A stretch of DNA of 64,000 nucleotides from Candidatus Bathyarchaeota archaeon (GCA_963828195.1 CAWHDT010000007.1:1-64000), one strand, 5' to 3'; positions 1,238-29,292 are shown, counted from the stretch's first letter. Notes: a model not told the origin generated them from the sequence alone. Made by a program: numbers and translations.

Positions 1238-1600
1238 ATGGGTATTTCTCTCCAGGTTAATTTGTCGAATTTTGATGCAAAAAAGAATTGCCTGAGCTGT
1301 CTTTGTGAGCAGTATCCGGAGGCGGTTGGGCAAGCTATGATGAATGTTGCCCAGAATATTTTGGCGACTGCAAACACGTTAGTTCCAGTCAGAACAGGCT
1401 ATTTGAAAAGCACCATAGCGATTGAACAGCCCAGCAATTTTCAACTTAAGGTTAAGGCTACAGCGCCATACGCATATTATGTTGAGTTTGGAACAAGGAA
1501 AATGTCTGCGAGGCTTTTCCTTACAAACTCGGTTAATCAGCATCTTGGCGATTTGGCACCGGAGATTGAGCAGCAAATCCAAGATTTGCTCAAAGGCTAA
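1238..1600 (+). CDS. HK97 gp10-like tail completion protein
   Basis: PVRTGYLKSTI and APYAYYVEFGTRKM motifs. Confidence 0.9.
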   Translation: MGISLQVNLSNFDAKKNCLSCLCEQYPEAVGQAMMNVAQNILATANTLVPVRTGYLKSTIAIEQPSNFQLKVKATAPYAYYVEFGTRKMSARLFLTNSVNQHLGDLAPEIEQQIQDLLKG

Positions 1601-1641
1601 CTTTTCTTTATAGTAACCAAATGTAATCGAGGTGAAAAAAT

Positions 1642-2049
1642 ATGAGTACATCTACACCAGTCCTAAGTAGGTTAGCCGTCGTTCAGGTAGGCGGGACAGC
1701 AATCGGCTTTCTAACGGATTTTACAACTGACATCAAGGCAGAAGTGATCAAAGAATACGTTTGCCAAACAGCACCAACACCCGCTTTTTTGGCCAGCGGC
1801 AACCAATCCAACACATTCAAGGCTTCAGCACTCTTTGTCCCATCACTCTATGCAGCATTGCTAAATGATGTTCTAAACGGCACGGTCGTAACGGTTATTT
1901 GGGGACCACAAGGAACAACCACCGGAAACCCGAAAATCACATACAACAACGTTATCTTAACTGCTTACAGCGTAAAAAACGGGCAGAAAGGCACCATTGC
2001 AAACGATATCAGCGGCGAAGCCCAGACCATAACGCCAGGCTCATTCTGA
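1642..2049 (+). CDS. Major tail (tube) protein
   Basis: 135 aa, beta-rich, GAGGTGA RBS, directly upstream of the chaperone and tape measure genes. Confidence 0.7.
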   Translation: MSTSTPVLSRLAVVQVGGTAIGFLTDFTTDIKAEVIKEYVCQTAPTPAFLASGNQSNTFKASALFVPSLYAALLNDVLNGTVVTVIWGPQGTTTGNPKITYNNVILTAYSVKNGQKGTIANDISGEAQTITPGSF

Positions 2050-2092
2050 GTTTACTTTTTTTAAATTTTCGATTATAAACTAATGAGGTGAT

Positions 2093-2548
2093 TTGATGAG
2101 TGAAGAAAAATTTGATACCGAAGGTTTTGAGAAACTTAAAGCCGCATTTGATGAGTACGAAGCAGAGCAAAAAGAGCGTTTCAAAAATTTCAGCGTAGGC
2201 CTGCTTAAGAGCAGTAAGGTTCCGCAAGAGGCTAATGTGCCTGGCGCCGGATGGGTAAAATTCGTATTACTATCCCATAATGAACTGAGCGATTTAGCCA
2301 AGTTCTACAAGGACGATCAACGCGAATTTGAACTTCAAGCGCTTCTGATGATGATGAAGCCCTGCTACCCGGACTTAGCAGAGAAGGATTTGCGTGATGC
2401 TCCTTGGGATTTGGTGCGTGCTCTAGAGAAAGCTTTGTTGAATGAGGGTTTTTTACCGCGTCAGGTGAGGCGGTCAATGACTGGATTTACTGGAGCAGTG
2501 AAGCACAGCGGATCGCAGCCGTCATCAACCTCTACCACTACACCTTAG
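2093..2548 (+). CDS. Tail assembly chaperone (gpG-like)
   Basis: Lies between major tail and tape measure genes; slippery G GGT TTT TTA at 2446-2455. Confidence 0.8.
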   Translation: MMSEEKFDTEGFEKLKAAFDEYEAEQKERFKNFSVGLLKSSKVPQEANVPGAGWVKFVLLSHNELSDLAKFYKDDQREFELQALLMMMKPCYPDLAEKDLRDAPWDLVRALEKALLNEGFLPRQVRRSMTGFTGAVKHSGSQPSSTSTTTP

Positions 2549-2631
2549 AATACGCGGCAAGCTTGACGAGTTTTCAACTTGAGTTTTTGATTCAATCGGC
2601 AGTTTGGTATCATAAATTAACTGAGGGTTAA
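2446..2631 (+). CDS. -1 frameshift extension of the tail chaperone (gpGT-like)
   Basis: The -1 frame is open from the slippery site to TAA at 2629-2631, 2 nt before the tape measure start. Confidence 0.8.
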   Translation, partial: GFFTASGEAVNDWIYWSSEAQRIAAVINLYHYTLEYAASLTSFQLEFLIQSAVWYHKLTEG

Positions 2632-2633
2632 GT

Positions 2634-4019
2634 TTGAGTGGCGCTCCTGCAGAAATAGACATAGTTGCAACTGATGATGCCTCAGATATTTTCCAAGAAG
2701 TCAGCAGCAACTTTACTGAAATGAGCAGCAATGTCAGCGAAGCTTCTGGAACTATGAGCACCGACGTTTCAGATAGCATGCAACAAACTGCAAGCTCAGT
2801 TTCAACCATGGCGACAACGGTGACGGCTGACACTAGCCAAATGCAGGATTCCTTCAATCAAGCCGGAAGCACAGCCCAAGTAAGCATGAATCAAATAACC
2901 GTTAGCACCGGTGAAGCAAGCGATGCAACAGACGCATCAAGCCAAAGTTTTAGTCAAAACGCTATGCAGATGAACAGTGCAGCTATGAGCGGTGCCATGC
3001 TGTATATGGCTGTAAATAACATCGAGAACGCGCAAACATCGCTTGCCCGAGCAAACTTAACAGAAGAGAAAGCGGCTAACTCAGTTACTTTAGCGCAGCA
3101 AGCCTACAATGTTGCTGTTGCGAAATATGGTGAAACCAGCATTCAGGCACAGGATGCAGCGAATAAACTTAACTTAGCTATTGAAACTCAGCAAGTAGAT
3201 CAAGAACGGGTCTCTGAAGCGAGTCGAAATTACAACAGCACGTTAATGATGTCAGCATTGACGGTTATTCCCGCAGTCATTAACGTAATAACTCTTGCAA
3301 GCCATGCGACTCAAATGTGGGAAGGCGCCCAGGCTGCTCTTGATGTTGTTATGGATGCTAATCCGATTGGCTTAGTTGTACTTGCAATAGCTGCCTTAGT
3401 AGCTGGCGTAATTGCGGCTTACACCTATTGCAAGCCCTTCCGCGACGTCATTAACGACATAGGAAGCATCATAGGCGGAGCAGTTCTTTCAGCAGTTAAC
3501 ACTTTAAAAACTGCAGGAGATGCCTTATGGAACGGGCTCAGCTGGGCATACAACAATATTCTTTTGCCGGTAGCTAACTTTTTCAAAGAAGTTTTGGTCG
3601 CCGACTTGAACGTGGCGTTAATACCTGTTAAAGCCTTTGAGACAGCCATTGGCGCCGTCGCAAATGCAGTGAAGCCCTTGAGTGATTTAATCGGGGGCTT
3701 AGGCAGTGCACTTAGCCACTTGTGTTTTGCACATGCAGCACCTGCAGCTGAAGAATTCAACAAGCAAGTAACCCAGAGCATCTCTCTGAGCGACCAATTA
3801 ACCCATAAAACCAACACTCTTGGCTCATCGCTTCAAGGCTTAGCTGGAAACGTCTCAGTTAAAGGCGGAGGCGGAACAAGCAACATAACAATCGGCTCAC
3901 CCAACATCACAATCGGCAACATTACCGGCACAGCATCACTTAAGCAAACACGAGATGCAGTCAACAAAGGGATCTGCGATGCAATGTACAAGAAAGGCAT
4001 AATGAACAAGGTGACATAG
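2634..4019 (+). CDS. Tape measure protein
   Basis: Ala/Ser-rich helical protein; IDIVATDDAS N-terminus and ANPIGLVVLAIAALVAG motif. Confidence 0.9.
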   Translation: MSGAPAEIDIVATDDASDIFQEVSSNFTEMSSNVSEASGTMSTDVSDSMQQTASSVSTMATTVTADTSQMQDSFNQAGSTAQVSMNQITVSTGEASDATDASSQSFSQNAMQMNSAAMSGAMLYMAVNNIENAQTSLARANLTEEKAANSVTLAQQAYNVAVAKYGETSIQAQDAANKLNLAIETQQVDQERVSEASRNYNSTLMMSALTVIPAVINVITLASHATQMWEGAQAALDVVMDANPIGLVVLAIAALVAGVIAAYTYCKPFRDVINDIGSIIGGAVLSAVNTLKTAGDALWNGLSWAYNNILLPVANFFKEVLVADLNVALIPVKAFETAIGAVANAVKPLSDLIGGLGSALSHLCFAHAAPAAEEFNKQVTQSISLSDQLTHKTNTLGSSLQGLAGNVSVKGGGGTSNITIGSPNITIGNITGTASLKQTRDAVNKGICDAMYKKGIMNKVT

Positions 4020-4415
4020 ACGAGCTGGCAAATAACACAAGGATCCACAACAATCACGTTGCCTTATGCGCCACAGACTAACACTGATGAATCTCCGACA
4101 ATTGACGACTCTTCGATCAACATACCCGAGCAAGGAACTACGCTTATTTCAGTCTGCAATGACGTGCGCACTTTAACAATGGAGGGCTTTTTCTACATAG
4201 CAGGCTCTAGTAAAAGCACTATTGATACTACGTACATTATTCCCTTGCTCAGCATGCTTCACTTACTCGTCACTTTAACAACTCCACGACCCAGCCTTAA
4301 TGCCACATGGAAATTTGATAAAGCAACTTTCACAGAAACAAAAGACTACTCAAACCAACCCGCAATCAAATTTACCCTTGTCTTCAAATTTGCTGCAAAC
4401 TACGTGGTGCTATAG
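4020..4415 (+). CDS. Distal tail (Dit-like) protein; start probably at 4020 (ACG), track start 4059
   Basis: Directly follows the tape measure gene; GGTGA at 4010-4014; frame open from 4020. Confidence 0.65.
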   Translation, partial: TSWQITQGSTTITLPYAPQTNTDESPTIDDSSINIPEQGTTLISVCNDVRTLTMEGFFYIAGSSKSTIDTTYIIPLLSMLHLLVTLTTPRPSLNATWKFDKATFTETKDYSNQPAIKFTLVFKFAANYVVL

Positions 4416-4417
4416 CG

Positions 4418-6442
4418 ATGTCGTGGACCATTCAATATTTGTCTGGCAGCACCTGGGTAACAAAAACTGACGCGGTTATTGATCAGATAGTTGACGAGAT
4501 TAATGGCCAGCTGGGAGCAGCTGGAGAACAGGAACTTGACTTTGTTCTTCCAAATACTCCGGCGAACTTGGCTTTTGTTCAAACTGATCAGCAAATTCAA
4601 ATTCTCTGGGGAGCCACAAGCGTCTTTGCTGGATTACTACGGGCCTACAAAGCAAAATTCCTCAACATCACAGCGACGGTTTACAATAGCGTTTTTGAAT
4701 TAATGAAAAAGCAGACAATCACTGGCAAATACAATAATGTAGCTGCATCGTCAATATTGGCTGCAATTTGCGCGGCTTGTGGCATGACTGCTGGATCCTG
4801 CCCGACAACCGCCATTAGCACACAATTTAATTCCACGGACTGCTACACTGCAGGGCTTAATGTTGCCAATATTTTGGGCTTAAATTTGTTCAATTCTGGC
4901 AACACAGTAAATATCGCTGTTAAGGGCAATCAGACTCCCACGGCCATAACAATTGACACTGAAAGCGAAGTGGACATAGATAGAAGCAAATCGGGTTATG
5001 ATGGCGTAATTATCCGTGGTGTCGATCAGGCTGGGAACGTAATTACAGGTTCAGCGGGAAATACCGGTGCGGGTTACAGTGTCAAAACCTTAACCAACAA
5101 AATTGCTATGAGTCAATCTACTCTAAATAGCCTTGCAACTGAATATTTGCAAAGTCTCCAGCAGACCAACAGCGGCTCGCCTCTCGTATGCGATATTTCT
5201 CAAGCAGCACTGCTCAACAGTGGCGATTTAATTACTGTTACGAACGGCGCGGCTTTTGGGCTTTCTGGAAGCTACGAAATTGCGACCATAACGAAAACTT
5301 TGACTAAGGCAACTATTGAAATTGTGCATTCAGTTAACGATTTTAGTAACTTAGTTGATGCTCTGGCTTCTGCAACCACTGCTCTCAACACTTTGCCCAT
5401 AAGCAGCGATCAGGTCCAGGGTAGCAGTGTAAGTCTGCAAAGCTTACAGGCATTTTATCATCTGGGTGAAGGCTCCGGTGCAGTTGCCACCGATTCAAGC
5501 TCTGCAGGAAATAACGGATCTATAGGTTCTGGTTGCACTTGGGTTCCAGGACCTGAAACAAAAGTTTTAATGTTCAATGGCAACGGCAGCTACGTTGACA
5601 TACCAGGCAGTGACGTAAATTTTGGCGGCTTATCCGCAATGACTTTCACTGTATGGTTTTCGCCGACGTCTGCAGCTCAAGGCTACCTCGCGTATAAGCC
5701 TAACCAATTTTACGTTCAGGTAAATGCAAATGGCAGCATAATTTTCGCGCTCTACATTGGCGGAGCTTGGGTAACATTATCAGCTCCAGCTGGTTCAGCT
5801 ACGTTAAATGGTCGCCTCTTTTGCGCTTTCGTCTACGATGGAACTAACATGTACATTTATCTCAATGGACCTGTCCTTGTGCAGCAGGCTCAAACAGGCG
5901 CTATTGGAAGCAGCACAAATGATACCTACTTGGGCGCTGAAACTGCTTCTTTAGGCGGTTTTAGCGGAGTAATTTCAGAAGTTATGTTTTTTGGGCGTGC
6001 CCTCGGGGCGCAGGAGGTGTATTCGCTTTACTTTTTTCCCCTTATTAGCTACCTAAAAAGCGGTGGCATCGGAGCAACAACTTGGAGCGTTTACATCTTA
6101 GGCGATCCAAATGGCTCTTTGAGTTTAAGCGGATTGCAAACGATGGCCGCTGGATCACCCTGCACCGTGTCTGACTCTTTGAATGCTGGATTTAGCTTAA
6201 GCTATTGGCTTTTAGACGGAGTGCAAGTCACCGGGAACCCTTACACGATTCCAGCGCAAACTGCTGGGTCATGCCACGTTTTGCAGCCCGTATCCGCCGT
6301 TACTTCTCCACCTGTGTTTTGGTTTGCAAGCGTCACAACAGGCAACAGCGATATGAAAGAGGAAGGCGACATGGGCGACGCGATCCTTCTCAATGACACA
6401 AGCGCTGTGCGAGCTGAAACTAACGTAATCACAAATCATTAG
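4418..6442 (+). CDS. Tail hub/baseplate protein fused to a LamG/concanavalin-like domain
   Basis: Hub-like N-terminus; YHLGEGSGAVATDSS...VYDGTNMYIYLNG...FSGVISEVMFFGRAL LamG motifs. Confidence 0.8.
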   Translation: MSWTIQYLSGSTWVTKTDAVIDQIVDEINGQLGAAGEQELDFVLPNTPANLAFVQTDQQIQILWGATSVFAGLLRAYKAKFLNITATVYNSVFELMKKQTITGKYNNVAASSILAAICAACGMTAGSCPTTAISTQFNSTDCYTAGLNVANILGLNLFNSGNTVNIAVKGNQTPTAITIDTESEVDIDRSKSGYDGVIIRGVDQAGNVITGSAGNTGAGYSVKTLTNKIAMSQSTLNSLATEYLQSLQQTNSGSPLVCDISQAALLNSGDLITVTNGAAFGLSGSYEIATITKTLTKATIEIVHSVNDFSNLVDALASATTALNTLPISSDQVQGSSVSLQSLQAFYHLGEGSGAVATDSSSAGNNGSIGSGCTWVPGPETKVLMFNGNGSYVDIPGSDVNFGGLSAMTFTVWFSPTSAAQGYLAYKPNQFYVQVNANGSIIFALYIGGAWVTLSAPAGSATLNGRLFCAFVYDGTNMYIYLNGPVLVQQAQTGAIGSSTNDTYLGAETASLGGFSGVISEVMFFGRALGAQEVYSLYFFPLISYLKSGGIGATTWSVYILGDPNGSLSLSGLQTMAAGSPCTVSDSLNAGFSLSYWLLDGVQVTGNPYTIPAQTAGSCHVLQPVSAVTSPPVFWFASVTTGNSDMKEEGDMGDAILLNDTSAVRAETNVITNH

Positions 6443-6455
6443 GAGAAAAAACAAA

Positions 6456-7187
6456 TTGTCAACTGTAATTAGAGGCCAGCAGGGCGGCTCGACCGGAAAT
6501 GCTGTTGAAGGCGGAGGCTTCTGCTTTGCATCAACAACTTACTCCGAGGGATGCAGTAAAGGTCCGCTTGACGCAGCCCTTCTTGAAAATGGCACTAACA
6601 TAACTGAGGGATGCACGGCAGGTCCGCTTGACCTTGGGTTTCTTGACAATGGAGTTAATGCGGAGTGTGGAAATGATTCAGGGCCAAGTCGCTCTGATGC
6701 TCCCGCTTTTCCGACAACAGGCACATACGGAAACACCAACACTGGAGCAAGCTACACTCCCTGCATAAACGACATTGTTGGAAGCATCTTTACAACTCCA
6801 ACCGTATCGGGCGCGATCCATGTTACTGGAATCCACGCACTTGTACAATGCGACACAGCTAACAAAACCTTCAACGCTGCAATTTACACGGCTGCAGGCG
6901 CTTTAGTTGGACAATGCAACGCTCTGACAGTTGCCTATCAAGCAGGTTCACAACTCATTATGTTTACTCCAACAAACGCGATACAACTTACATCTAACAC
7001 AACCTACATCCTAGTTATTTGGTGCAACAGCGCCTCAGGAAACGGCGGTCTATTCTACATCGCTGGAAGCACAAATCAAGGCTACACCTACGCTTCGGCG
7101 TATTCGTCAACTTTTCCAAGCAGCCTCGGAACAATCACCTACAACAATGACGAGTATTGCGTTTACGCGGATTACTACGTGTTTTAA
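6456..7187 (+). CDS. Putative tail fibre/receptor-binding protein
   Basis: Gly/Thr/Ser-rich beta protein in the tail module; internal 20-aa repeat. Confidence 0.6.
   Translation: MSTVIRGQQGGSTGNAVEGGGFCFASTTYSEGCSKGPLDAALLENGTNITEGCTAGPLDLGFLDNGVNAECGNDSGPSRSDAPAFPTTGTYGNTNTGASYTPCINDIVGSIFTTPTVSGAIHVTGIHALVQCDTANKTFNAAIYTAAGALVGQCNALTVAYQAGSQLIMFTPTNAIQLTSNTTYILVIWCNSASGNGGLFYIAGSTNQGYTYASAYSSTFPSSLGTITYNNDEYCVYADYYVF
6541..6660 (+). repeat. Two 60-bp tandem units (EGCSKGPLDAALLENGTNIT / EGCTAGPLDLGFLDNGVNAE)
   Basis: GAGGGATGCA...AGGTCCGCTTGAC...TTCTTGA.AATGG repeated at a 60-bp period. Confidence 0.85.
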
Positions 7188-7205
7188 GGGGGTGAATAAG
7201 ATAAA

Positions 7206-7889
7206 ATGTTGACTTTTTATCAAAACTTGAAACCTCAGATAGCTAAGAAGTACAGAAACAAGCTGATGCTGCAGTGGTGGGCTGTTAAGCAACTTCTAAA
7301 AGGAAAGCTGCGGCTACGAAACACTTTCGGCGACGAGATCAGAGTCAAAGATGAAATCACATGTTGGCAAGGTGACAAACTTCAGTTCCGAACCAAAGGA
7401 CACATAGTTTCCTACGGCTTGACGTTGATTGTAAATTATCTTTCGTTCGCGGGTACCTCTTCATCAACGGCAGCCTATGGAATGATGTACTCATGGTATA
7501 TTCGATGTGGAACAGGAACAGGAGCCACTGGACAATCAACCATTGGGTTGGTAACGATTAACTCTACCGCGCCAAACACCATGTCTGGAACAAACAGTAA
7601 CCCAAGCGCCGGACAATACCGCATCGCTTGGACGGCAACGTGGAATTCAGGTACTCTTTCGGCAATCACTATTACGGAATTTGGAATGTGGTGGAATAAC
7701 GGTTTCGCTGGCAGCCCTACCGTACCAAGCTTACAGGGTTTTGGTTCTAACTATATCTACCAATCCGGCGGGGCTAACACTCAGTTTGCTTCTCGCATAA
7801 GCAGTACAGACGGCGACTTCACAAGCTTCACCGTAAATACATCCGTTCCTTTGACGCTTCAGTGGAACTTAACTTTCACTTTCGCTTAG
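7206..7889 (+). CDS. Putative tail fibre-associated virion protein
   Basis: GTGTG, ITEFG and TLQWNLTF motifs resemble tail-fibre N-terminal domains; GGGGTGA RBS. Confidence 0.6.
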   Translation: MLTFYQNLKPQIAKKYRNKLMLQWWAVKQLLKGKLRLRNTFGDEIRVKDEITCWQGDKLQFRTKGHIVSYGLTLIVNYLSFAGTSSSTAAYGMMYSWYIRCGTGTGATGQSTIGLVTINSTAPNTMSGTNSNPSAGQYRIAWTATWNSGTLSAITITEFGMWWNNGFAGSPTVPSLQGFGSNYIYQSGGANTQFASRISSTDGDFTSFTVNTSVPLTLQWNLTFTFA

Positions 7890-8322: not shown

Positions 8323-8548
8323 AGTTTCTTTTGTCTTTTCTTTTTTTTAATAAAGCAGCCTCATAAGTTTAAAAAACGGAGCTGATAGTAAGCTCGTTTT
8401 AAGTCTTTTTTTGACATTTAACTTGTTGTCTTAGCGGAAGCTACTTAACTTCATAGATCAAAAGAATAGATATAATAAGTACATATTAAATCGCGAAATT
8501 CTTTTTGACAGCTGTGATGAGACTAAACGGTAAAATTTTCATAATGAG

Positions 8549-8570
8549 AACCCTTAAATTTGCATAGCAT
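8549..8570 (+). repeat. Motif A, degenerate copy
   Basis: AACCCTTAAATTTGCATAGCAT. Confidence 0.55.
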
Positions 8571-8600
8571 TTTGATGTTAGTGGGTTTTTTTCAGTGGAT

Positions 8601-8894
8601 TTAGTTATTGCCTATAGGGTTACAGAGATTTTTGTTCACTTCACCTTTAGCAAGATTAAAGCCAAGTTTCAAGATTTCGCCAAAGACTACGGCGCCCCAG
8701 TTCCATTGTTTGAGTGGTTTCTCTTCTTCAGTTCTTAGCCAATTTTCCAAAGATTTTTCACCTAGATGAAGTATAGTGTACGCTACGTAATCTGAAGCTT
8801 CTGCTTTGCGACATTTCTCATTAAAGTTAAGTGGTAGCTTGACCAATCTTATCGGAACTTGCATGGGCGTTATTGGAACTATTTTGTACTCCAT
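8601..8894 (-). CDS. Hypothetical protein
   Basis: 97-aa ATG ORF, 22 bp downstream of the wHTH gene. Confidence 0.6.
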   Translation of the reverse strand: MEYKIVPITPMQVPIRLVKLPLNFNEKCRKAEASDYVAYTILHLGEKSLENWLRTEEEKPLKQWNWGAVVFGEILKLGFNLAKGEVNKNLCNPIGNN

Positions 8895-8916
8895 TTTTTT
8901 CCACGTTCATTTTTTT

Positions 8917-9258
8917 CTATAAATCAGTTCGTTGCCTTTGAAATTCTGCACCACATACCAATAATCCACTCATGTGATTTTCAACGTGGAATTTGTATGC
9001 TTGAGCATTTCCAATTTTCCTAGTTGGAATTGCAAATCCCATTTTGATAAGCTTTTCTAAGGCTTCTTTAGTTGTTTTATAGGATAGGTTTGCTGACTCA
9101 GCTAACATGGATATTGTTTGCTCCATGTTTCCTACAATTAGAGCCTGATCAAATAATCTGGCTGTAGGTCCTCCAAATATGCTTGAGAATGGTCCTCTTG
9201 TGGCATACTCTTCTGCATCATTTTTTTGTTCGTTTTGTTCTTTCGTTAATGTTTGCAA
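8917..9258 (-). CDS. Winged helix-turn-helix regulator
   Basis: TISMLAESANLSYKTTKEALEKLIKMG...RKIGNAQAYK; GAGGA RBS. Confidence 0.85.
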   Translation of the reverse strand: MQTLTKEQNEQKNDAEEYATRGPFSSIFGGPTARLFDQALIVGNMEQTISMLAESANLSYKTTKEALEKLIKMGFAIPTRKIGNAQAYKFHVENHMSGLLVCGAEFQRQRTDL

Positions 9259-9406
9259 TTTTTTTCCTCCTATAAGCCTTCTCTAATTACTTTACTACTA
9301 CCTACTATAACACCAGTAGATATAAATTTTACTATAATACAATGAGTTTGTAAAAAAATACAATGTATTCAAAGCTTTAAAACATACCGATTCATAATAG
9401 CTATCC

Positions 9407-9757
9407 ATGCCAGCCAAAAGCCTTTCATCCCTAAAACCAAGAGAGAGAAAATTCGCTGGCTTTATTCTTAATAAATTGTGGACTGATAACTATTGGTGTG
9501 GTGAAGGTAGACGACAACACTTAGGGCATACTTCAAAAACAAATTTGCCCAAAGGGCTCCCTCGCAGTGATGCTGGTGAAGTGCAAGAGGTCGCTGATAA
9601 ACTTATCAAATTGGGCTTTATTTGTAAAGTAAGTGCAACCGGAGATATTCATGTATGTGCTAGTAGATCACCTGAAAAAATAGACGATGGCCTTGTTGTG
9701 GTGAATGAATATAGGGCTTCAGTTGGTCTAGTTCTTTTGGAAAGAGACCAAATATAA
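9407..9757 (+). CDS. Hypothetical wHTH-like protein (GHTSxxNLPKG type)
   Basis: 116-aa ORF divergent from the wHTH gene. Confidence 0.65.
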   Translation: MPAKSLSSLKPRERKFAGFILNKLWTDNYWCGEGRRQHLGHTSKTNLPKGLPRSDAGEVQEVADKLIKLGFICKVSATGDIHVCASRSPEKIDDGLVVVNEYRASVGLVLLERDQI

Positions 9758-10009
9758 ACTTTAGACTACTACCTAATGCAAATTATCGTAAAAGCAACAT
9801 GAGAAATTAATTCTAGAGAAAACTGCATAAAACATTTTATATTTATTTGGATTCGTAGGGTCACTTATTATGCTCTCAGGTATTCCACGCTCTTGGGCGA
9901 CTACAAAGTAAAGTAGCACCCATAGGTATAACATCATTCTTCTTTTTCAATGATGTTTTCATAAATTAGAAGATACTTCCACTACTTTAAGCAACTTTTT
10001 GATGGTCAA

Positions 10010-10037
10010 AAGTCTTAAATCTGCATAGCATAGAAAA
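10010..10037 (+). repeat. Motif A copy
   Basis: AAGTCTTAAATCTGCATAGCATAGAAAA. Confidence 0.9.
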
Positions 10038-10097
10038 TAATCAGTGATTAGATTGATTGATATTTTCAATCACTTTATTGTCCATTGACCTAAACTT

Positions 10098-10937
10098 TTA
10101 GGATAAGGCTGTTTTCAGAAATTCAGCCAATTTAATAGTCTCGATTTCTAAATTGCAATATGGACATACTTTTAATTGTTCTAAACTCGTTTCTCTTTCA
10201 ACCTTTAGATTACCACCGCAGTGTGGGCATCGATACACAGCTACAATCCCTTCTTGTCGCAATTGGCGTAATAAGTCATTTACATCAATGTTCTTGATGA
10301 TTATTTCCTGTTTAATTGTTGGCGTCTTGGAATCAGGAGTGTATTTTCCTTGTTCCCAAGCCCCAATATTGAGAGATATTGGGGCAACGATAAATATTAA
10401 TTGGTTATTTGCAATTTGGATTGGATACATCTGGTTTTTATGTATGAAAACCTTGAGTTCCTTCCAACGAGTGCCAAAAATATCATTCATGCAATTTACA
10501 ACGCCATCAACCAATCTTCGGTCTACAATTGTTTTTCTTAGACCAACTATGGGTCCTCCGTTTGCATTGACTCCGCAATCAAGCGAATCCAAGGTTACTT
10601 GCAGGAAGTTTTGAAAATTGACGTTATTGACGTGCTCGATAAATGAACTTGATGTTATCATAATTATTCTCAATTCGTCGGTTGCATATTCAGTTAATAG
10701 AGGCTCAGGTAGTATAGCAAACGTCATTGGGTTGACCCTTATGTTCCATTTGCGTCCAGTCCACTCCGACATATATTGGATAACTTCTTTGTAGCGGGGA
10801 GCAGTCTTTATTGATACTTCGATAGAATTTTGTTGCTCTTCAACATGGCTTGTTGTTTGTTCTTTCTTTTTATTTGTTCCAAAGAGGGGTATCTCAAAGC
10901 ACCAGCAGTTTCCATTCACAAATGTGCGGATGTCCAA
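10098..10937 (-). CDS. Hypothetical protein with C-terminal Zn ribbon; true start probably downstream
   Basis: CPHCGG...CPYC motif. Confidence 0.7.
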   Translation of the reverse strand: MDIRTFVNGNCWCFEIPLFGTNKKKEQTTSHVEEQQNSIEVSIKTAPRYKEVIQYMSEWTGRKWNIRVNPMTFAILPEPLLTEYATDELRIIMITSSSFIEHVNNVNFQNFLQVTLDSLDCGVNANGGPIVGLRKTIVDRRLVDGVVNCMNDIFGTRWKELKVFIHKNQMYPIQIANNQLIFIVAPISLNIGAWEQGKYTPDSKTPTIKQEIIIKNIDVNDLLRQLRQEGIVAVYRCPHCGGNLKVERETSLEQLKVCPYCNLEIETIKLAEFLKTALS

Positions 10938-10999
10938 ATTAATTTATTGGTTCGTTTAAGTATTGTTGGGTTAAAATAGTTGGTCATGAACACGTTTGC

Positions 11000-11026
11000 T
11001 CAAGGGGTTAAAATGTACTCAGCAGC
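11000..11026 (+). repeat. B-type core plus right arm
   Basis: TCAAGGGGTTAAAA TGTACTCAGCAGC. Confidence 0.6.
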
Positions 11027-11044
11027 TAAGTATTCACAATCAAT

Positions 11045-11071
11045 AAGTCTTAAATCTGAAAAGCGTAGAAA
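11045..11071 (+). repeat. Motif A copy
   Basis: AAGTCTTAAATCTGAAAAGCGTAGAAA. Confidence 0.9.
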
Positions 11072-11115
11072 CAGCATTGAGTATAAAGAAGCACAATAGC
11101 CTTGGTAAAGGTAAC

Positions 11116-11409
11116 ATGCCAATTGAGCCTTTAAGATGTAAAGTATGCGGTGGAATGTTAGACGCTAACTTAAAGTGTCCCTACTGTGGAGCGCTTCACG
11201 TTAGAGTAAACAATATTATTATGGTAATGAAGATATGCCCTAAACACTTAATCGCTTATTCCGCTAACCTCTGTCCTAAATGCAGTCAAGAAAAAAAAGC
11301 AGAGTCGGAAAGAAAAGAAAAAGAAAAGCTTGAGTTTGAACACTGGAAACAACGCCATTCAGCTTTCCTAACTAAAGCAGGACTCGTTAAAGAGGAAACA
11401 TCAAAATGA
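11116..11409 (+). CDS. Zn-finger protein
   Basis: CKVCGG...CPYCG and CPKH...CPKC motifs; a hydrophobic 28-codon ORF at 11406-11492 overlaps its stop. Confidence 0.65.
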   Translation: MPIEPLRCKVCGGMLDANLKCPYCGALHVRVNNIIMVMKICPKHLIAYSANLCPKCSQEKKAESERKEKEKLEFEHWKQRHSAFLTKAGLVKEETSK

Positions 11410-11503
11410 CACTATCGAGCGCTGTTCTTATTCTTGTTGCCATTCCGATTGTAATATATGCAAAGACTCCTTATGAACTTAAAAGGCATTAAACGGTTAG
11501 GGC

Positions 11504-11530
11504 TATTACCGAGTACATTCAAGGGTTAAG
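11504..11530 (+). repeat. Motif B (left arm plus core)
   Basis: TATTACCGAGTACATTCAAGGGTTAAG; 25/27 identical to 29134-29160. Confidence 0.9.
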
Positions 11531-11535
11531 AATTT

Positions 11536-11580
11536 CGCTATTTAGAGAAGATAAGTCTTAAATCTGAATAGCGTAGAAAA
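11536..11580 (+). repeat. Motif A copy with palindromic arms
   Basis: CGCTATTTAGA-N16-TCTGAATAGCG (10/11 inverted match), containing AAGTCTTAAATCTG. Confidence 0.9.
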
Positions 11581-11598
11581 TACCACATTAGATAAGAA

Positions 11599-11835
11599 AT
11601 GAATTGGCATAGATGGTCACGACAAACTTGCAGAAATTGCAAACATTTCCCTCTAAACATGGATAGTGTTTGTTATGTAGATGAAATGGGCAGAAAAATT
11701 TTCACTCAATGTGTCTATGTGAAATATAATGTCTATCCAAATACACGGGCATGTGAACAATTTACAGCAATGAAGGGTAAAAGTAGAGAAGAACAATTCA
11801 GTAAACTATTAACTTCATTGATACCTAAAAAATAG
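11599..11835 (+). CDS. Small Cys-rich hypothetical protein
   Basis: CRNCKHF...C...ACEQF; 18 bp after motif A. Confidence 0.65.
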   Translation: MNWHRWSRQTCRNCKHFPLNMDSVCYVDEMGRKIFTQCVYVKYNVYPNTRACEQFTAMKGKSREEQFSKLLTSLIPKK

Positions 11836-11863
11836 CCCTACCTTTTGTTTTTTAAAGCATGAT

Positions 11864-11889
11864 AAGTCTTAAATCTGCATAGCATATAA
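11864..11889 (+). repeat. Motif A copy
   Basis: AAGTCTTAAATCTGCATAGCATATAA. Confidence 0.9.
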
Positions 11890-11918
11890 TAGAAAAATTG
11901 TGAGTGAGGGAATCAAAA

Positions 11919-12311
11919 ATGAGAGAAAAATCAACTACCGACTCTAAAAAACCAAAAGATAACGGTGACACTGCACCTTCGCATGACGAAATCAGATACT
12001 CAATCCTAACGATACTTTACAAAAAGGCAGAGAAAACTCCTTCCGACGCCACAGTAAGCAGAGAACAACTTGGAGAAATTTTAGGTGTAGAAGACAATAA
12101 AATTGACTTTAATTTAAAATATCTTGAACAAAAAAAACTCATAGACCGACCACAATTGTTTCAAGGTTCATATAAGTTGTCAGCAAGAATAACTGCCGAT
12201 GGAATAGACATTATAGAACATAAAGAAGAAAACAAGAAGCAATTTCCATTTTTAAGTGCGACAATCCCTATACAAATTCAAAATAAATTTTGTCTTATTA
12301 ACATCGGCTAA
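11919..12311 (+). CDS. Winged-helix domain protein
   Basis: ILTILY...LGEILG...NLKYLEQKKLI...ARITADGIDIIE. Confidence 0.75.
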   Translation: MREKSTTDSKKPKDNGDTAPSHDEIRYSILTILYKKAEKTPSDATVSREQLGEILGVEDNKIDFNLKYLEQKKLIDRPQLFQGSYKLSARITADGIDIIEHKEENKKQFPFLSATIPIQIQNKFCLINIG

Positions 12312-12406
12312 CATCGCTTAGATCATGTGTGACCGCTAAAGAAGTTTGATTAGCCGAAAATATAAGTATGGGTATGTTTTTTGGCTTTAAGCAGTTTGGC
12401 TTTTTT

Positions 12407-12706
12407 TTAATCAGTTGTTTGTCTTTGTGACCTTTTATATCTCTTTATTTCCCCAGAATCCCTTGTTTGAAACCCGATTTCGTCAAAGTTTATAACACCA
12501 TCATTGAGAATAATTATGTTATGAAACTTTGCAATTGTTACTGCCATCTGCTCTGGAACATGTCCAATTTCAGTAAACTCAGCGTCATTAAGGATTTCTT
12601 TTTGATATTTTGGATTTACGTAGATTTTTTCTATTTTCTTCCCTTTCGTTTCATTTGCTCGGATTAATTCCCTAATATCATCCGTTATGCTATTTTTATA
12701 TGGCAT
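12407..12706 (-). CDS. Hypothetical protein
   Basis: 99-aa ATG ORF with GAGG RBS, downstream of a minus-strand motif A. Confidence 0.65.
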   Translation of the reverse strand: MPYKNSITDDIRELIRANETKGKKIEKIYVNPKYQKEILNDAEFTEIGHVPEQMAVTIAKFHNIIILNDGVINFDEIGFQTRDSGEIKRYKRSQRQTTD

Positions 12707-12732
12707 TTTGAAACCTCTGTTTTGGCTCTTAT

Positions 12733-12756
12733 TGTTGCTGTGCAGATTTAAGACTT
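12733..12756 (-). repeat. Motif A copy (minus strand)
   Basis: Reverse complement reads AAGTCTTAAATCTGCACAGCAACA. Confidence 0.85.
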
Positions 12757-12835: not shown

Positions 12836-13111
12836 TTAAAATTCTGTTCGCTCTTTTGCCTTAGCGAATTTTTTAGCCATTGTCGGCAGAGCTAAAACTT
12901 TGCTCATGGTTTCAGTTGCTACGCTTATTTGAGTCGTGTTTGCTTCTATTTGCGCTTTCAGTTGCTTGTTTTCGGCTCGTAGTTCTGTGATTAGCTCGTT
13001 CTTTGTACTTGTCCCTATTGTGTGCGATTTCTTTATTATACATCTCAAGATCGATAACCAAATCGTCGAGAGGTCGCCCCATATCGCATTCCTGAACTTT
13101 TCTCTAAGCAT
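12836..13111 (-). pseudogene. Coiled-coil C-terminal gene fragment, possibly an integrase tail remnant
   Basis: ELITELRAENKQLKAQIE coiled coil; upstream frames are interrupted. Confidence 0.3.
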
Positions 13112-13317
13112 TAATAATCATACTACTTTCGGTGCAAAAGCTGTTGCGGAGCATGTGCGTTTTGCCATGCAAGTACTTCGATTGCAAGACCTTTAATAGT
13201 TCTTAAACACAAAAGACTATATTGTGCTTATTCGCATGGACAAGTTGCGTTTAGCTTGAGCTACTCCGTGAGCATGCCGCTAACATCAGCGAAGGGTTTG
13301 ACTGGTGAGATAAAAAA

Positions 13318-16090: not shown

Positions 16091-16337
16091 TCGAACACTC
16101 CCAATCCGCATCAACCGATTTTTGACAGGCAGAGAAAAACTAGGGATTAACTGCAGACTTGACAGAGCCCATGAGAACATGCTATTTTAATGAAGTTAAT
16201 TTTCACTTTCACTAACCCCTCCACTGCTCCAAAAGTTCGTTTCAACATTTACTTTTTAAGCGATTTCACTCAAAAAAGGTAAGCCCCAAGTGAACGCCTA
16301 TGATAAAGAAATTAGATTGTCTGGAGGCTTAGCAAGC

Positions 16338-16715
16338 ATGGGTAAGACTGTTGAATCTTTCAGGATGGCTCTGGAGGGAGAGATTAACCGGTGGAGCGGC
16401 TTCGCTAGAGCCTTGCGCAAGCCTGATCGGGAAGCTTTTGATGAGCTGATGGATATGTGCAGAACGTATGCTTCAGAAAGCAGCTGTGCAACTAACCCAA
16501 TCGTCTTTGAGCCAATGGTGATGTCTATTTTGCTTTTTCAGCAAAAACGGATTAGGCAACTAGAGCGAGAACTGCAAACGATCGAGCCTAATGTAGCGGA
16601 TCCTGAACCAGCCAGCCCTTCAGAAAGCTGTGAAGCAAGCGTGCCACTCGAATCCAAACCTGAGAAGAACGTTCAAGCTGTTCCAAGTGGAGGTGAGCAA
16701 AGACGGTTGTTTTAA
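16338..16715 (+). CDS. Small helical protein of the PolB2-associated type (arCOG07300-like)
   Basis: MGKTVESFR...W..F.RALRKPDREAFDELM...FEPMVMSILL motif; GGAGG RBS. Confidence 0.7.
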   Translation: MGKTVESFRMALEGEINRWSGFARALRKPDREAFDELMDMCRTYASESSCATNPIVFEPMVMSILLFQQKRIRQLERELQTIEPNVADPEPASPSESCEASVPLESKPEKNVQAVPSGGEQRRLF

Positions 16716-16717
16716 TT

Positions 16718-18701: not shown

Positions 18702-19164
18702 GAGGTGGGAGGGAATGGCTGAGCTTACAGATGCATCTACCCCAGATTGCATATTTGGCACCAAAGCCGGTTCGAACAACTGTAAGTCGGATGCTACCAT
18801 GTCCGCCGGCGCCAGCCCCCTAAACCCACTTCTCTACGTGCGTTACAAGGACCATGTCATTTACAAAAACATTCTTCAACCCAACCCTGAGGCTATTGAG
18901 CGGGAAACGGTTGGTTGGCTAACCCATCAGAACCAAGACATAATCCTCATCGAGCATGACAGAACCATTCAGTGCCAGGACGTTTCGAGCGGTAAAAGCA
19001 ACGGTATTATCATTTTAAAAAGCTGCATTCTGGAAATTCGACCATTACAAAAAAATTCAAAATGGAAATTAAATTGCCGACAGCCTATTGTTAAAGATGA
19101 GTATGCGTTCCGGACATCGGAGCGAAAAACTCACAGAGCAAAAAGCTCCAAAGGAGAGAACTAG
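18685..19164 (+). CDS. Hypothetical protein upstream of the integrase
   Basis: VRYKDH...ETVGWL...IILKSCI beta-barrel-like core. Confidence 0.6.
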   Translation: MENYVERWEGMAELTDASTPDCIFGTKAGSNNCKSDATMSAGASPLNPLLYVRYKDHVIYKNILQPNPEAIERETVGWLTHQNQDIILIEHDRTIQCQDVSSGKSNGIIILKSCILEIRPLQKNSKWKLNCRQPIVKDEYAFRTSERKTHRAKSSKGEN

Positions 19165-20599
19165 ATTGCTACAGCGCACAGCACCTTTAGCCTCCGCTAT
19201 AACCCGCAACCGCAACCTTACCGTTGAAGAACTAAAAAGCCTCAACCTACCGTTGATAATCCAAGGCGAAACCGTCACCATCGAAAGAAGTATAGACGGT
19301 TGGAAGCTCAGAAAACCGATCACAATACAACTTAGCAAAATCGTAGCTGCCCAAGAAAAAGGACTCGTTGACTACATCATACGCTCATGCCTAAAGGACC
19401 GCTCAAGCATAATCCCATACATCTTTGAATACCAAAGCATGCTAAAGATGGCACGACACTTTCTACGTCACTGTTCAGGCTCGCATGCCAGCTGCCTAAT
19501 GTATACAACCAAAACCAGAAAATACGCAGAATGGCTAGGCCATAATCCCGATGTAATAATCCAAGACGTCAAACCCGTCGGCGCAATCCCCGACCCCATA
19601 AAAGTACAGAGCCACTGTGAATTTCTAAGCGACTACTTAGCCTACCTCCAAGACTCAGACCTTAGCTCAGGTGCAGTCAGCAACTATGTAAAATCAGTAA
19701 AAACCTTCTACCATGCCAACGGAATCAAAAAAGTTGAACTCGACGAACCGCTTAGCCGAAAGGTAACATACAAAGACCGAGCGCCAAAACCAGAAGAAAT
19801 CGCATTGATGCTAGACAAAGCCGCCGTACGAGAAGCTTTCATCGTTGCAGCTATCGCATCAGGCGCCTTTCGCGAAGGAACCTTTACAAAACTCAAGTAC
19901 CGACACGTCAAAGAGGACTATGAAGCAGGCCGCGTACCTATCCACATTCATGTTGAAGCCGCCATAACTAAGGGAAAATACCACGATTACGATACCTTCA
20001 TCAATGCAGAAGCCAGCCAGCTCCTAAAACTCTACATCGAAGACAGACAACGAGGCGGAAGATCAATGCCCCCAGAACAGTTAACAGACGAATCCCCGCT
20101 CATCAGAAATAGCCAAGTCACAAACAGAGCATTAGGCGTCAGCGAGAAAACTATCGGAAAAATCGTCCACGACCTAGCAGTTGGCACTAAAGTCTCAAAG
20201 AAACTACCTAACAGTTGGATGTACAGCGTCAGAACACATAGTCTAAGAAAATTCTTCCGAAGCCAGCTCAGCGCAGCAAAAATCGACTCGGAAATCATTG
20301 AATACATGATGGGACATACAGTCAGCACCTATGAAGACGTACAGAGCTTAGGAATAGAAACCCTCAGAAACCTCTACGCAACAGCCGGGCTTGCGATCAG
20401 ACCAAAAACCCAAACAAACCGCATTGATCAACTCAAAGAAATCATACGAGCGTGGGGAGGAAACCCCGAAGAAATCCTATCTAAAGACGCCCTGCTTAGA
20501 GGCAACATCACAGAAGCACAGGACCAAACGCAGAACCATCAGCTCTCGATTCTTGCCGAAAATCTCAAGCAGATTATCCGTAAGGAGGCTACGGAATGA
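19088..20599 (+). CDS. Tyrosine recombinase/integrase; exact start uncertain
   Basis: SGAFREG (R), TKGK (K), HSLRK (HxxR), MMGH, STY catalytic residues; SAM-like N-terminal part. Confidence 0.93.
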   Translation: MLKMSMRSGHRSEKLTEQKAPKERTRLLQRTAPLASAITRNRNLTVEELKSLNLPLIIQGETVTIERSIDGWKLRKPITIQLSKIVAAQEKGLVDYIIRSCLKDRSSIIPYIFEYQSMLKMARHFLRHCSGSHASCLMYTTKTRKYAEWLGHNPDVIIQDVKPVGAIPDPIKVQSHCEFLSDYLAYLQDSDLSSGAVSNYVKSVKTFYHANGIKKVELDEPLSRKVTYKDRAPKPEEIALMLDKAAVREAFIVAAIASGAFREGTFTKLKYRHVKEDYEAGRVPIHIHVEAAITKGKYHDYDTFINAEASQLLKLYIEDRQRGGRSMPPEQLTDESPLIRNSQVTNRALGVSEKTIGKIVHDLAVGTKVSKKLPNSWMYSVRTHSLRKFFRSQLSAAKIDSEIIEYMMGHTVSTYEDVQSLGIETLRNLYATAGLAIRPKTQTNRIDQLKEIIRAWGGNPEEILSKDALLRGNITEAQDQTQNHQLSILAENLKQIIRKEATE

Positions 20600-26494: not shown

Positions 26495-26515
26495 CGCGCA
26501 CTAACGAGCATGATT

Positions 26516-27352: not shown

Positions 27353-27656
27353 ACTAGAATCAAACCAAACTTTTTATTTATACGTTACGCAAGAGCTCAA
27401 TTACAAAATTCGTTTTTTGCAGTAAGGCTCTCGATTTTGGCCCCATATTTGTGTTGGTTTTTTGGTGTAAATACTAGACCGCCTCTTAGGGTAGGTTGGT
27501 CCGATTCAGAGCTTAATTCAGGTTGATTTCTTGGTTCAGGGCTTAAATCAAGCATTGAACACGGTGGCTCCTGAAAACATGCAATATAAAGCTCCGTAAA
27601 AGACGCAAGCGTCAAAAAAACAGGCAAGTCTTAAATCTGAAAAGCATAGAAAAACC

Positions 27657-27911
27657 TCAATTTTTAATTATTCTTTCCATTAGTAGTACGATTATACCAA
27701 TAATAGTTGAAAGAATCCCTATAGCTATCAAAAGCAATGCAATGGCAAATGGTAGGTGGGTTAACGGCTGCCATTCAGAAGAATCGGGTACATAAGTGAG
27801 TTTATTTTGAATATATTTTGTCAGCATAGGCACTGCCAAGAAGTTGAAAAGAAAACCAGCAGCCATCAGAATCAGCCCAAAAATGGTTATTATTACAGAT
27901 GGCTTAAGCAT
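27657..27911 (-). CDS. Small two-TM membrane protein
   Basis: Two hydrophobic segments; stop codon 2 bp from motif A. Confidence 0.7.
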   Translation of the reverse strand: MLKPSVIITIFGLILMAAGFLFNFLAVPMLTKYIQNKLTYVPDSSEWQPLTHLPFAIALLLIAIGILSTIIGIIVLLMERIIKN

Positions 27912-27998
27912 TTTCCTTAACCATTTGTTTTGAATTCTAACAATGCCTTTCTCATTCGGTGGAAACGATGAGAAGCTCTTATTGGCACTACCTATATT

Positions 27999-28823
27999 TT
28001 ACACCCCATCGTTTGAAACGGTTTGCTGACTTGAATTAATGGGCTTTCGTTTTCTCATATAAATTAGTAGAAAAATAATAATTGCCAACAAGAATGCAAT
28101 TACTATAAGAGCTATAGTGGTTATTAGCAAAGGAGATGCGTAAGAAGCACTGCTAACAGTCGTTAAAGTTGGAATTGAGGTTAGCGTTGGAGTTGAAGTT
28201 GAAGAGGATGGGATAGAGGTAGGGCTTAAGGGGATGCTAGCGGGTATGCTTATTGTTTGTGTACTGCTCCAAGCGCTTGTTTGACCAACAAAAACATAAT
28301 ATGAAGGATAACCATTGGTGAATGTCTGAATGATATATCCTATCATTGCTTGAACTTGGTAATCAAGTGAATAGCTGACACCATTATCCCCTATAGGAAA
28401 TGATAGATTAGTATAATCGGAACCTGTTGATTGTGTTGGAAAGTTTCCGCCATTATAAGTGCTGAAAAGGTCATCGAAACTGCCACTTAAATTCGGTTCT
28501 TTGTTTTGAACATTATAGTAGAATACATTACTATCGGTGGGCGCGAAAGGTTGGTTTTTGATAGTTAGCACTATGTAGCTGTATTTGTCATAATAGCCAA
28601 TTTTAGCTACAATCTGTCCTGAACTTTGGTTTAATGAGTAAGTTGTAGGCACAGTGTAGGAAGGACCAGCAAGCTGTATAGTGAATGTTGGAACGGAAGG
28701 CGTGGGTATTGTTGAAGGCGTAGGCGTTGGTGTCTGAGCAAATGCTGGTTTAGCCATTATTAGACTTGAGGCGGCTAAGAAAACGATAAGAAGCAACGGA
28801 AAACTCTTGCTGATACGACCCAT
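27999..28823 (-). CDS. Secreted, C-terminally anchored protein
   Basis: Signal peptide ending PAFAQT, PSVPTFT, YQVQAMIG, WSSTQT motifs, TM plus RKRK. Confidence 0.8.
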   Translation of the reverse strand: MGRISKSFPLLLIVFLAASSLIMAKPAFAQTPTPTPSTIPTPSVPTFTIQLAGPSYTVPTTYSLNQSSGQIVAKIGYYDKYSYIVLTIKNQPFAPTDSNVFYYNVQNKEPNLSGSFDDLFSTYNGGNFPTQSTGSDYTNLSFPIGDNGVSYSLDYQVQAMIGYIIQTFTNGYPSYYVFVGQTSAWSSTQTISIPASIPLSPTSIPSSSTSTPTLTSIPTLTTVSSASYASPLLITTIALIVIAFLLAIIIFLLIYMRKRKPINSSQQTVSNDGV

Positions 28824-28934
28824 ACTCAGTCTTACAGACGGTGTGATGATAAAAGGATTCTCGTAAAAGTTTCTTGACTACCCTTGGTCAAAATTTATTG
28901 ACTAACTGCTCTCTTGCTTTTTGCCATCGCTTGG

Positions 28935-29061
28935 TTACTCAATAAGAAATAGAGTAGGCACTGTTTGAGCATTTGCAGGGTTAATTATTAGCAAACTTGC
29001 ACGTGATATAGCCCTGATTAGAACCAGAATTAATGCAAAACCTCTTGTTGATACTACCCAT
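28935..29061 (-). pseudogene. Frameshifted signal-peptide remnant paralogous to 27999..28823
   Basis: MGSINK/GFALILVLI...NPANAQT; upstream region 29040-29115 resembles 28801-28878. Confidence 0.7.
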
Positions 29062-29292
29062 ACTTAGCCGTAGAGACGGTTGACGATAAAAGAGTTCCTG
29101 TAAAGATTTCTTGACACAAAAAACATGCGACAATATTACCGAGTACATTCAAAGGTTTAGGCTCCATTTTCTTCTATGGTCTAATTTAAATATTAACGAT
29201 GTTGCTCTTGTCACTTTGAGATTTTATTTTGTAGTCAAGGCTTAATGTCTGCAAAACTTTTTTAGAAGCCTTCACTTTGAAATTAGTGAGAG

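Follow-up and report, generated by a model that had tools for sequence, protein, structure and literature searches.

Motif A, a predicted core promoter module in front of small accessory genes in proviruses and variable chromosomal slots of a soil and peat Bathyarchaeia genus

The first 64 kb (64,000 nucleotides, hereafter the window) of contig C7 of a Candidatus Bathyarchaeota archaeon assembly (GCA_963828195.1, CAWHDT010000007.1:1-64000; 2.83 Mb, 44% GC, 9 contigs) carry several copies of a 27-bp site, motif A, which most likely is a conserved, directional archaeal core promoter module, a prediction that is made with high confidence. Taken together, the results are probably best explained by such a module heading small, mostly unrelated accessory genes and perhaps also serving as a homology patch. 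It would do so in a genus of soil and peat Bathyarchaeia, either singly or arrayed in variable chromosomal slots, and in the window as moron-like units located in a tailed provirus, with its tail genes on one side and its integrase on the other. The close relatives of the ComA protein are Bathyarchaeia/Bathyarchaeota metagenome-assembled genomes (MAGs) from soil and peat.

Within the window, the 14-mer core AAGTCTTAAATCTG occurs exactly at 10010, 11045, 11553, 11864 and 27626 on the plus strand and at 12743-12756 on the minus strand, i.e. six times, with 0.83 matches expected at up to 2 mismatches. The 27-mer pattern, allowing at most 3 mismatches, matched at the same five plus-strand positions and in none of 100 shuffles. 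A position weight matrix (PWM) built from the genome's own 14 motif A copies gave the copy at 8549 a score of 16.3, marking it as degenerate, and the other six scores of 33.6-42.0. Four copies precede a start codon on the same strand, the distance from motif end to ATG being 44 nt for the 11045 copy (ATG 11116, with TTG 11077 at 5 nt), 19 nt for 11553 (ATG 11599), 28 nt for 11864 (ATG 11919, with GTG 11904 at 13 nt) and 23 nt for 12756 (ATG 12706). Three copies face the stop of a convergent open reading frame (ORF) on the minus strand, namely 10010 (61 nt, ORF 10098-10937), 27626 (4 nt, ORF 27657-27911) and 8549 (25 nt, ORF 8601-8894). The first-pass annotation, which had listed this recurring site together with the four same-strand starts, the three convergent stops and a pair of inverted arms, was therefore accurate in its description. 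The features concerned are:

8549..8575, plus strand: degenerate motif A copy AACCCTTAAATTTGCATAGCATTTTGA, followed by a T7 run (PWM score 16.3)
10010..10036, plus strand: motif A copy without a downstream gene, followed by a 14-codon frame and a hairpin, then a convergent stop
10041..10088, plus strand: terminator-like hairpin (-12.7 kcal/mol), inner stem TGATTGA/TCAATCA, then a T-rich stretch
11045..11071, plus strand: motif A copy (motif match), predicted promoter of the zinc-ribbon gene 11116-11409
11116..11409, plus strand: cassette gene, 97 aa, zinc-ribbon-like (weak Pfam matches), its frame open from TTG 11077
11487..11552, plus strand: upstream extension ('block 1' plus spacer) of the 11553 copy; blastn copies at 86-100% identity
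11536..11573, no strand assigned: inverted arms CGCTATTTAGA-N16-TCTGAATAGCG around the TATA box (arms 11536-11546 and 11563-11573, 16 nt apart)
11553..11579, plus strand: motif A copy (motif match), predicted promoter of gene 11599-11835
11599..11835, plus strand: cassette gene, 78 aa, Cys-rich, without a family match in Pfam and PHROGs scans
11864..11890, plus strand: motif A copy (motif match, 2 mismatches to the 27-mer), predicted promoter of gene 11919-12311
11919..12311, plus strand: cassette gene, 130 aa, whose one relative (L038_8327-) also stands behind motif A in another genome
12730..12756, minus strand: motif A copy with diverged 3' half (PWM score 33.6), predicted promoter of gene 12407-12706
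12407..12706, minus strand: cassette gene, 99 aa, without a family match in Pfam and PHROGs scans
27626..27652, plus strand: motif A copy (motif match) outside the provirus, on the upstream side of comA, gene-less here
27653..29207, minus strand: segment standing in place of a relative's cassette (from the alignment to that relative), with ORFs 27657-27911 and 27999-28823

A 180-nt RNA-library contig covers 11106-11285 without differences, which is no proof of transcription. A hydrophobic micro-ORF of 28 codons (11406-11492) shares an ATGA overlap with the stop of gene 11116-11409 and runs as far as the first bases of block 1.

The promoter reading follows from how the motif is placed relative to the genes behind it. 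At a cut-off score of 24 or more, the PWM scan returned 89 motif A copies from the window, six further own-genome loci and 34 loci from relatives (14 copies in the own genome, 75 in relatives). An ORF of at least 40 aa begins 5-24 nt past the motif in 49 of these 89 copies when read forward, compared to 6 of 89 when the sites are read reversed and 433 of 2460 random positions. The forward copies divide into 22 with the ORF at 5-11 nt and 27 with the ORF at 12-24 nt (reversed sites: 4 and 2; random positions: 157 and 276, respectively). When the ORF starts at 5-11 nt, the sequence after the motif is TAGNCTAACATG and the ATG lies 8-10 nt past the motif, its A being ~28 nt after the centre of TTAAAT; in the 12-24 nt class, GAGG- or GAGAT-like boxes precede the ATG, and a few secreted-protein genes have leaders of 75-110 nt with AGTCAAGAAAC repeats. 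TTAAAT, the TATA box, occupies motif positions 6-11, and since CTTAAAT/TTTAAAT-type boxes are also found upstream of this genome's tRNA genes, the TATA part is of the ordinary type. In archaea the distance from TATA box to transcription start is usually ~25-30 nt, and an ATG ~28 nt past the TATA centre has the spacing expected of a start at the ATG itself, i.e. of a leaderless mRNA.

The module would accordingly comprise the TATA box TTAAAT, the upstream bases on the side of the transcription factor B recognition element (BRE), and a conserved CTG-MAW-AGCRTAGAAA reaching down to about -10, with transcription predicted to start ~8-10 nt past the motif. We infer this start site, as well as the promoter strength, from sequence. 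As the ATG falls at the predicted start in one class, those genes would be leaderless; those of a second class would carry a GAGG-like box in a very short leader, and long leaders are expected for a few secreted proteins. The spacing and the strand bias both agree with the suggestion, made when the site was first noticed, of a TATA-containing promoter heading single small genes.

It could be argued that motif A is simply the top of a continuum of ordinary promoters. Other YTTAAAT sites (n=1158), however, have flat flanks without conservation, which rules this out; together with the occurrence of CTTAAATCTG 22 times against once for its reversed form, this makes motif A a discrete promoter class. 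Among the genus genomes, TCTTAAATCTGNNNAGC gave 290 matches in 57 of 120, with up to 22 per genome, while the reversed control gave none in all 120, and the exact 14-mer was found in 1 of 12 genomes from other families of the order. Many genomes that are at least 95% complete have zero matches, and the class is therefore patchy within the genus. A genome-wide scan, which had been proposed as a check on the original annotation, has thereby been carried out, with the 14 own-genome copies and the genus-wide counts as its outcome. A contig end is no more than a few hundred bases away from many of the matches (e.g. G038:C44:93, G066:C11:375 and G068:C6:431), and repeated modules or their variable arrays may be the cause of these assembly breaks. 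One copy of the own genome, C5:72849 (L002 5001-5400), recurs in another species (L042 9244), conserved at 94% together with 400 nt of flank to either side; it heads a ~160-nt leader followed by a 68-aa zinc-ribbon-like ORF, and no Rfam family was detected downstream of it at E 0.1. Another locus of the same contig (L004, C5:662092-665677) has ftr next to the gene for a terminase large subunit, the two being separated by a motif A unit and a copy of block 1; a second provirus remnant probably has its edge here.

The copies beside convergent stops had originally been regarded as an obstacle to a simple promoter, an objection that loses its force once their surroundings are considered. The hairpin behind the 10010 copy (-12.7 kcal/mol) has a z-score of -3.0, with 3 of 200 shuffles being as stable, and the same motif and hairpin recur in the relative L036 next to a different convergent gene. 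Upon folding of five gene-less copies, the 10010 copy gave z -3.0, the C3 copy z -1.8 (a smaller hairpin) and the L036 copy z -1.0, the remaining two having z +1.15 and +1.27. The 27626 copy is followed by a T5 run and the 8549 copy by its T7 run, neither with a hairpin. Gene-less modules adjoining a hairpin or T-run thus account for the copies that face convergent stops; they may be leftover promoter modules, or modules placed directly before a terminator-like hairpin or T-run.

The genes behind the motif are small, mostly unrelated ORFan accessory genes. The 69 downstream proteins fall into 62 blastp clusters (E 1e-5), have a median length of 124 aa and include 29 with a long hydrophobic run. 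At E 1e-3, Pfam gave no match for 32 of 39 further downstream proteins, the remainder being mostly zinc ribbons. No two of the window's cassette proteins share a blastp cluster, in line with the earlier observation that the genes between the copies are unrelated, and their Pfam/PHROGs matches are weak or absent. In the chromosomal arrays described below (L031-L033), an EVE domain and DUF1878 are the sole named families. That the motif might stand mainly in front of core genes, a prospect raised at the outset, was checked as well and is not so, given the 32 of 39 downstream proteins without a Pfam match.

Upstream of the motif, conservation extends further in some copies. Block 1 (11487-11552) is common to 18 other aligned copies in relatives, in which the left arm CGCTATTTAGA is kept, and a fragment resembling it lies at 29134-29157, within segment 27653-29207; a further set of copies has AAGTTTTCATWRAKGAT directly upstream (by eye from the copy listing). 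Such subfamilies with common extended upstream parts indicate that the modules spread by copying and not by convergence. A structured RNA or attC-like fold in block 1 is ruled out by the alignment of the 19 copies, whose consensus fold amounts to -1.66 kcal/mol without covariation, and the absence of an attC fold agrees with the initial remark that the site is not a canonical attC. In the window, no Rfam family reached its gathering threshold and no tRNA was found. The copying by descent visible in the subfamilies could also be that of a small, non-autonomous mobile promoter element, i.e. of a ~110-bp module inserting before pre-existing genes. Neither terminal inverted repeats nor target duplications came to light at the filled and empty sites that were read (they were not sought systematically), and since the genes behind the module vary as well and are missing from relatives, gene and module seem to travel together; an element of this kind is accordingly rather improbable.

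The array at 8549-12756 lies in a piece of a tailed provirus (window 1-20600), between its tail genes and its integrase:

1238..7889, plus strand: provirus tail module with neck/tail-completion, tape-measure-like and lectin-fold tail proteins (Pfam HK97-gp10_like and Laminin_G_3; PHROGs phrog_5 and tape-measure families)
19088..20599, plus strand: tyrosine-integrase-like gene, 503 aa (Pfam Phage_integrase, E 7.7e-5, below the curated cut-off; PHROGs integrase, E 1.5e-8)

A blastn block at 8546-9814 (94% to L020) shows that homology with a related provirus segment begins at 8546. Three related provirus loci (G016:C5, G040:C30 and G117:C5) have tail-side and integrase-side genes in common with the window; at a PWM score of at least 22 they contain no motif A except for one copy in the G040 tail module, and none near the integrase homologue. 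Window genes 1642-2049 and 2093-2548 are separated by a spacer of 43 bp; in the G040 provirus, their homologues have between them an insert of ~0.9 kb that contains, on the opposite strand, a motif A unit with a membrane-protein gene. The same unit was found on 3 IMG/VR viral contigs, a fourth match (GC content 34%, PWM score 23) looking like chance. Because the G040 insert has ~95 nt of extra sequence upstream of the motif, the motif is not the insertion boundary there. An autonomous unit between conserved genes in G040, and a window array without counterpart in the three related provirus loci, are what is expected of morons, and units of the G040 type are morons in the classical sense. The provirus also encodes a 530-aa protein (13318-14910) combining a beta-propeller (lactonase/YncE-like) with a C-terminal DnaJ domain, homologues of which occur in related proviruses at a different position.

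Outside proviruses, the module is arrayed in chromosomal loci:

Array L031 (G062): 8 co-oriented copies in 3.8 kb, flanked by fwdBD-like genes and glnA, with a HEPN/nucleotidyltransferase pair and a restriction-modification pair adjoining
Array L032 (G068): 3-4 copies, flanked by a GDPD gene and an NAD-synthase-like/LarC pair
Array L033 (G088): 5 copies, flanked by cobD and a P-type ATPase

An orthologue of the L032 slot holds the own gene-less copy C3:89954, and the slot was compared across 20 further genomes and three earlier ones, with the following contents:

Slot empty (20-41 bp): G066 and G070
Slot of 1.3-1.6 kb without motif: G016 and G067
Slot with 1 motif unit: G000
Slot with 2 motif units: G091
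Slot with 3-4 motif units: G068

In 13 of the 20 added genomes the left side is not syntenic and no motif lies within 8 kb; of the remaining 3 of 20, one is rearranged, one is stopped by a contig end and in one no left flank was found. As the content of this slot ranges from empty to 3-4 units, the units are variable-slot cargo and not a fixed platform, and the empty sites of this one orthologous slot have no resident motif A copy. What looked like a 'decayed motif' at the left boundary of the C3 slot (L001:3553) was discarded, as the sequence, shared with another genome, is not a motif. On the same contig, a tRNA-Sec gene (anticodon TCA) is predicted at C3:100933-101016, and the organism may use selenocysteine. 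In L031 (G062:C11), a 94-aa C-terminal glutamine synthetase fragment (12272-12556) lies 3.3 kb from the intact glnA (15901-17268), with a DNA methylase and an EcoO109I-type restriction enzyme in between, which looks like an element integrated into the glnA 3' end and duplicating that end.

Arrays of unrelated one-gene units that are mostly co-oriented (8 in L031, 5 in L033, 3-4 in L032), an integrase-like gene ~6.3 kb from the window array and breakpoints at motif edges are all reminiscent of a site-specific cassette system, in which motif A (with block 1) would be attC-like and a tyrosine recombinase such as that encoded at 19088 would move single-gene cassettes. Such a role as recombination or end site served by the 19088 integrase had in fact been the original proposal, and the comparison does not support it. 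The integrase (19088-20599) is part of the tailed provirus and unlinked to motif A, the related proviruses having an integrase homologue with no motif A near it, and the ORFs scanned within ~7-8 kb of L031, L032 and L033 included no member of an integrase or transposase family. The hot-spot sites that are empty lack a resident site, the G040 insert brings its ~95 nt of upstream sequence into an empty site without motif, the ATG spacing and strand bias are promoter-like, the 19-copy alignment has no attC-like fold, and circle or deletion joints were absent from the contigs of four runs. An integrase-driven cassette system is hence not supported, and of the explanations considered here it is the least likely.

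Gene content between relatives often changes right at the module. The window aligns to a close relative over 25061-27652 (81%), and the alignment stops at the last base of the 27626 copy; in the close relative this copy is followed by TAGACTGACATG and a 160-aa ORF, in the window by two minus-strand genes, and homology resumes at 29208. The 27626 copy is thus predicted to drive a leaderless gene in the close relative. Between L001 and L032, the left homology stops at the first bases of the first motif, and one metagenome contig is identical to the window over 11548-11759, its 107 nt upstream of 11548 being unrelated. Comparing 88 units, each with flanks of 400 nt, all against all yielded pairs with upstream-only homology (left/right, in nt), i.e. 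L031_9830 vs L038_8327 (191/3), L033_9080 vs L075_4509 (117/-1) and C9_106413 vs L063_3790 (210/-6), as well as pairs with downstream-only homology, i.e. L038_14140 vs L073_4103 (-1/400) and L031_7590 vs L039_8143 (65/293). The comparison of relatives for breakpoints, suggested alongside the original annotation, therefore found gain, loss and replacement at the motif edge in several cases.

Since the same 30-110 bp module recurs, we infer that it probably also acts as a homology patch, at which recombination would swap, delete or add flanking genes, a role that has also been proposed for the PeSLs of phages (see below). This role is plausible. Independent insertion of whole promoter-gene units may explain the breakpoints as well, because the alignments of any repeat stop at its edge and the G040 insert brings ~95 nt of its own. 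A wider version, in which a genus-wide pool of promoter-bearing one-gene units is exchanged between proviruses and chromosomal hot spots by recombination at the module, is put forward tentatively, and we consider it more doubtful than probable.

The segment 27653-29207 also contains a second recurring element, consisting of AGTCAAGAAAC(N)TTGAC-type repeats in long 5' leaders (window 28860-28905 and 29100-29116), which is also present in the own genome at C5:246499, C8:145123 and C9:108477. The genes behind these leaders encode secreted proteins with an MxSISKSFxLLL-type signal peptide, and for gene 27999-28823 (minus strand) the leader and first codons are duplicated upstream, at ~29040-29116.

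A number of points weigh against a core promoter module that doubles as a homology patch. No ORF of at least 40 aa lies within 120 nt of 20 of the 89 copies, and in a further 20 of 89 such an ORF is found only outside the 5-24 nt range; in addition, the loci were selected via motif presence or a match to the window, with a simple rule used for calling ORFs. The RNA-library contigs cover only 8587-9195, 11106-11285 and 13085-13300, from which neither starts nor strand can be read, and three peat metatranscriptome runs contained 6% of the sampled words. With regard to recombination, pairwise alignments of repeats end at the repeat edge by construction, so that recombination and whole-unit insertion are not separable by them, and the G040 insert carries its own ~95 nt upstream of the motif. 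Neither deletion nor circle joints were seen in the assembled contigs of two DNA and two RNA-library runs, a negative of little weight since contigs drop rare variants. Finally, the conservation from the TATA box to -10 and the ~70-nt block 1 (19 aligned copies) exceed what a core promoter needs.

This last point suggests that something other than the basal transcription machinery may recognise the module. CTG-N3-AGCRTAGAAA and the left arm CGCTATTTAGA (in block-1 copies) could be bound by one transcription factor that switches all units, which would make motif A an operator-promoter regulon. Such a regulon is compatible with the promoter reading, to which it adds a regulator; binding over the TATA box and start site, or between the two, is common among archaeal repressors. 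The conservation beyond the TATA box is specific to this class, and inverted arms surround the TATA box at 11536-11573, the left arm being kept in the aligned block-1 copies; most copies, however, have one arm only. The TrmB-like gene at 8917-9258 seems doubtful as the regulator, as it shows no DNA-level co-occurrence with motif counts: it has DNA-level relatives in zero-motif genomes (G116, G106, G044, G104 and G072), and motif-rich genomes lack a DNA match to it. With no candidate factor found, a regulon of this kind seems a possibility on the unlikely side, and the core promoter module that may double as a homology patch is the preferred reading.

Bathyarchaeia are abundant, with very few cultured representatives, and a literature search found no paper joining Bathyarchaeia, promoter and leaderless. 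For a whole genus, motif A provides a testable candidate promoter whose start is predicted and which includes a leaderless class; it could be used as a handle for small-ORFan annotation and expression tools, and it marks a variable accessory gene pool. The presence of the same module before provirus and chromosomal-slot genes suggests that viruses and hosts use one set of plug-in units, and promoter homology would be a simple route for swapping such genes if the recombination reading is true. The system would then be an archaeal, cellular counterpart of phage PeSL shuffling, integron-like without an integrase.

With respect to known systems, the closest are phage PeSL promoter modules and morons, not integrons. 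Like integrons and clusters of attC sites lacking integron-integrases (CALINs), the arrays consist of unrelated, mostly co-oriented single-gene units with a recurring site between them. In contrast to those systems, the site that recurs here is a predicted promoter, each unit having its own at a set distance from its start codon (integron cassettes being promoterless), with no IntI, attI or Pc platform around L031-L033 among the ORFs scanned and no attC fold. Putative prokaryotic mobile promoters, i.e. near-identical 5' regulatory regions before non-homologous genes, were reportedly described by Matus-Garcia et al. in 2012; motif A differs from these by its concentration in ORFan arrays and proviruses of one archaeal genus. 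Prophage morons are similar in being independent promoter-gene(-terminator) units amid conserved prophage genes and absent from related proviruses, but the morons of one phage seldom share a near-identical promoter, and the units described here also form chromosomal arrays. In the haloarchaeal myovirus HGTV-1, a conserved TATA-like box with an inverted repeat before many ORFs has reportedly been likened to PeSLs by the authors who described it (Sencilo 2013, as related in PMC3950731). The archaeal tailed-virus context and a TATA plus inverted-repeat motif ahead of ORFs are shared; the phylum and the sequence are different, and the module here is also distributed over chromosomal slots of the host, with matches in 57 of 120 genus genomes. 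The PeSLs (promoter-early stem-loops) of T4-type phages themselves (PMC2839356) are ~100-bp modules of a strong host-type promoter and a stem-loop, spanning from the stop codon of the upstream gene to the next start, that precede ORFans in hyperplastic regions and form subclasses, with recombination between modules and with mini-circles. Motif A resembles them in being a conserved promoter module, in subclasses, before ORFans in variable regions; breakpoints between relatives were seen at the motif edges, where alignments of a repeat end by construction. It differs in being of the archaeal TATA type instead of sigma-70, in having a stem-loop in some copies only, in having a promoter and terminator activity that is predicted, and in residing in cellular chromosomes as well as a provirus, with no mini-circles seen in the four runs.

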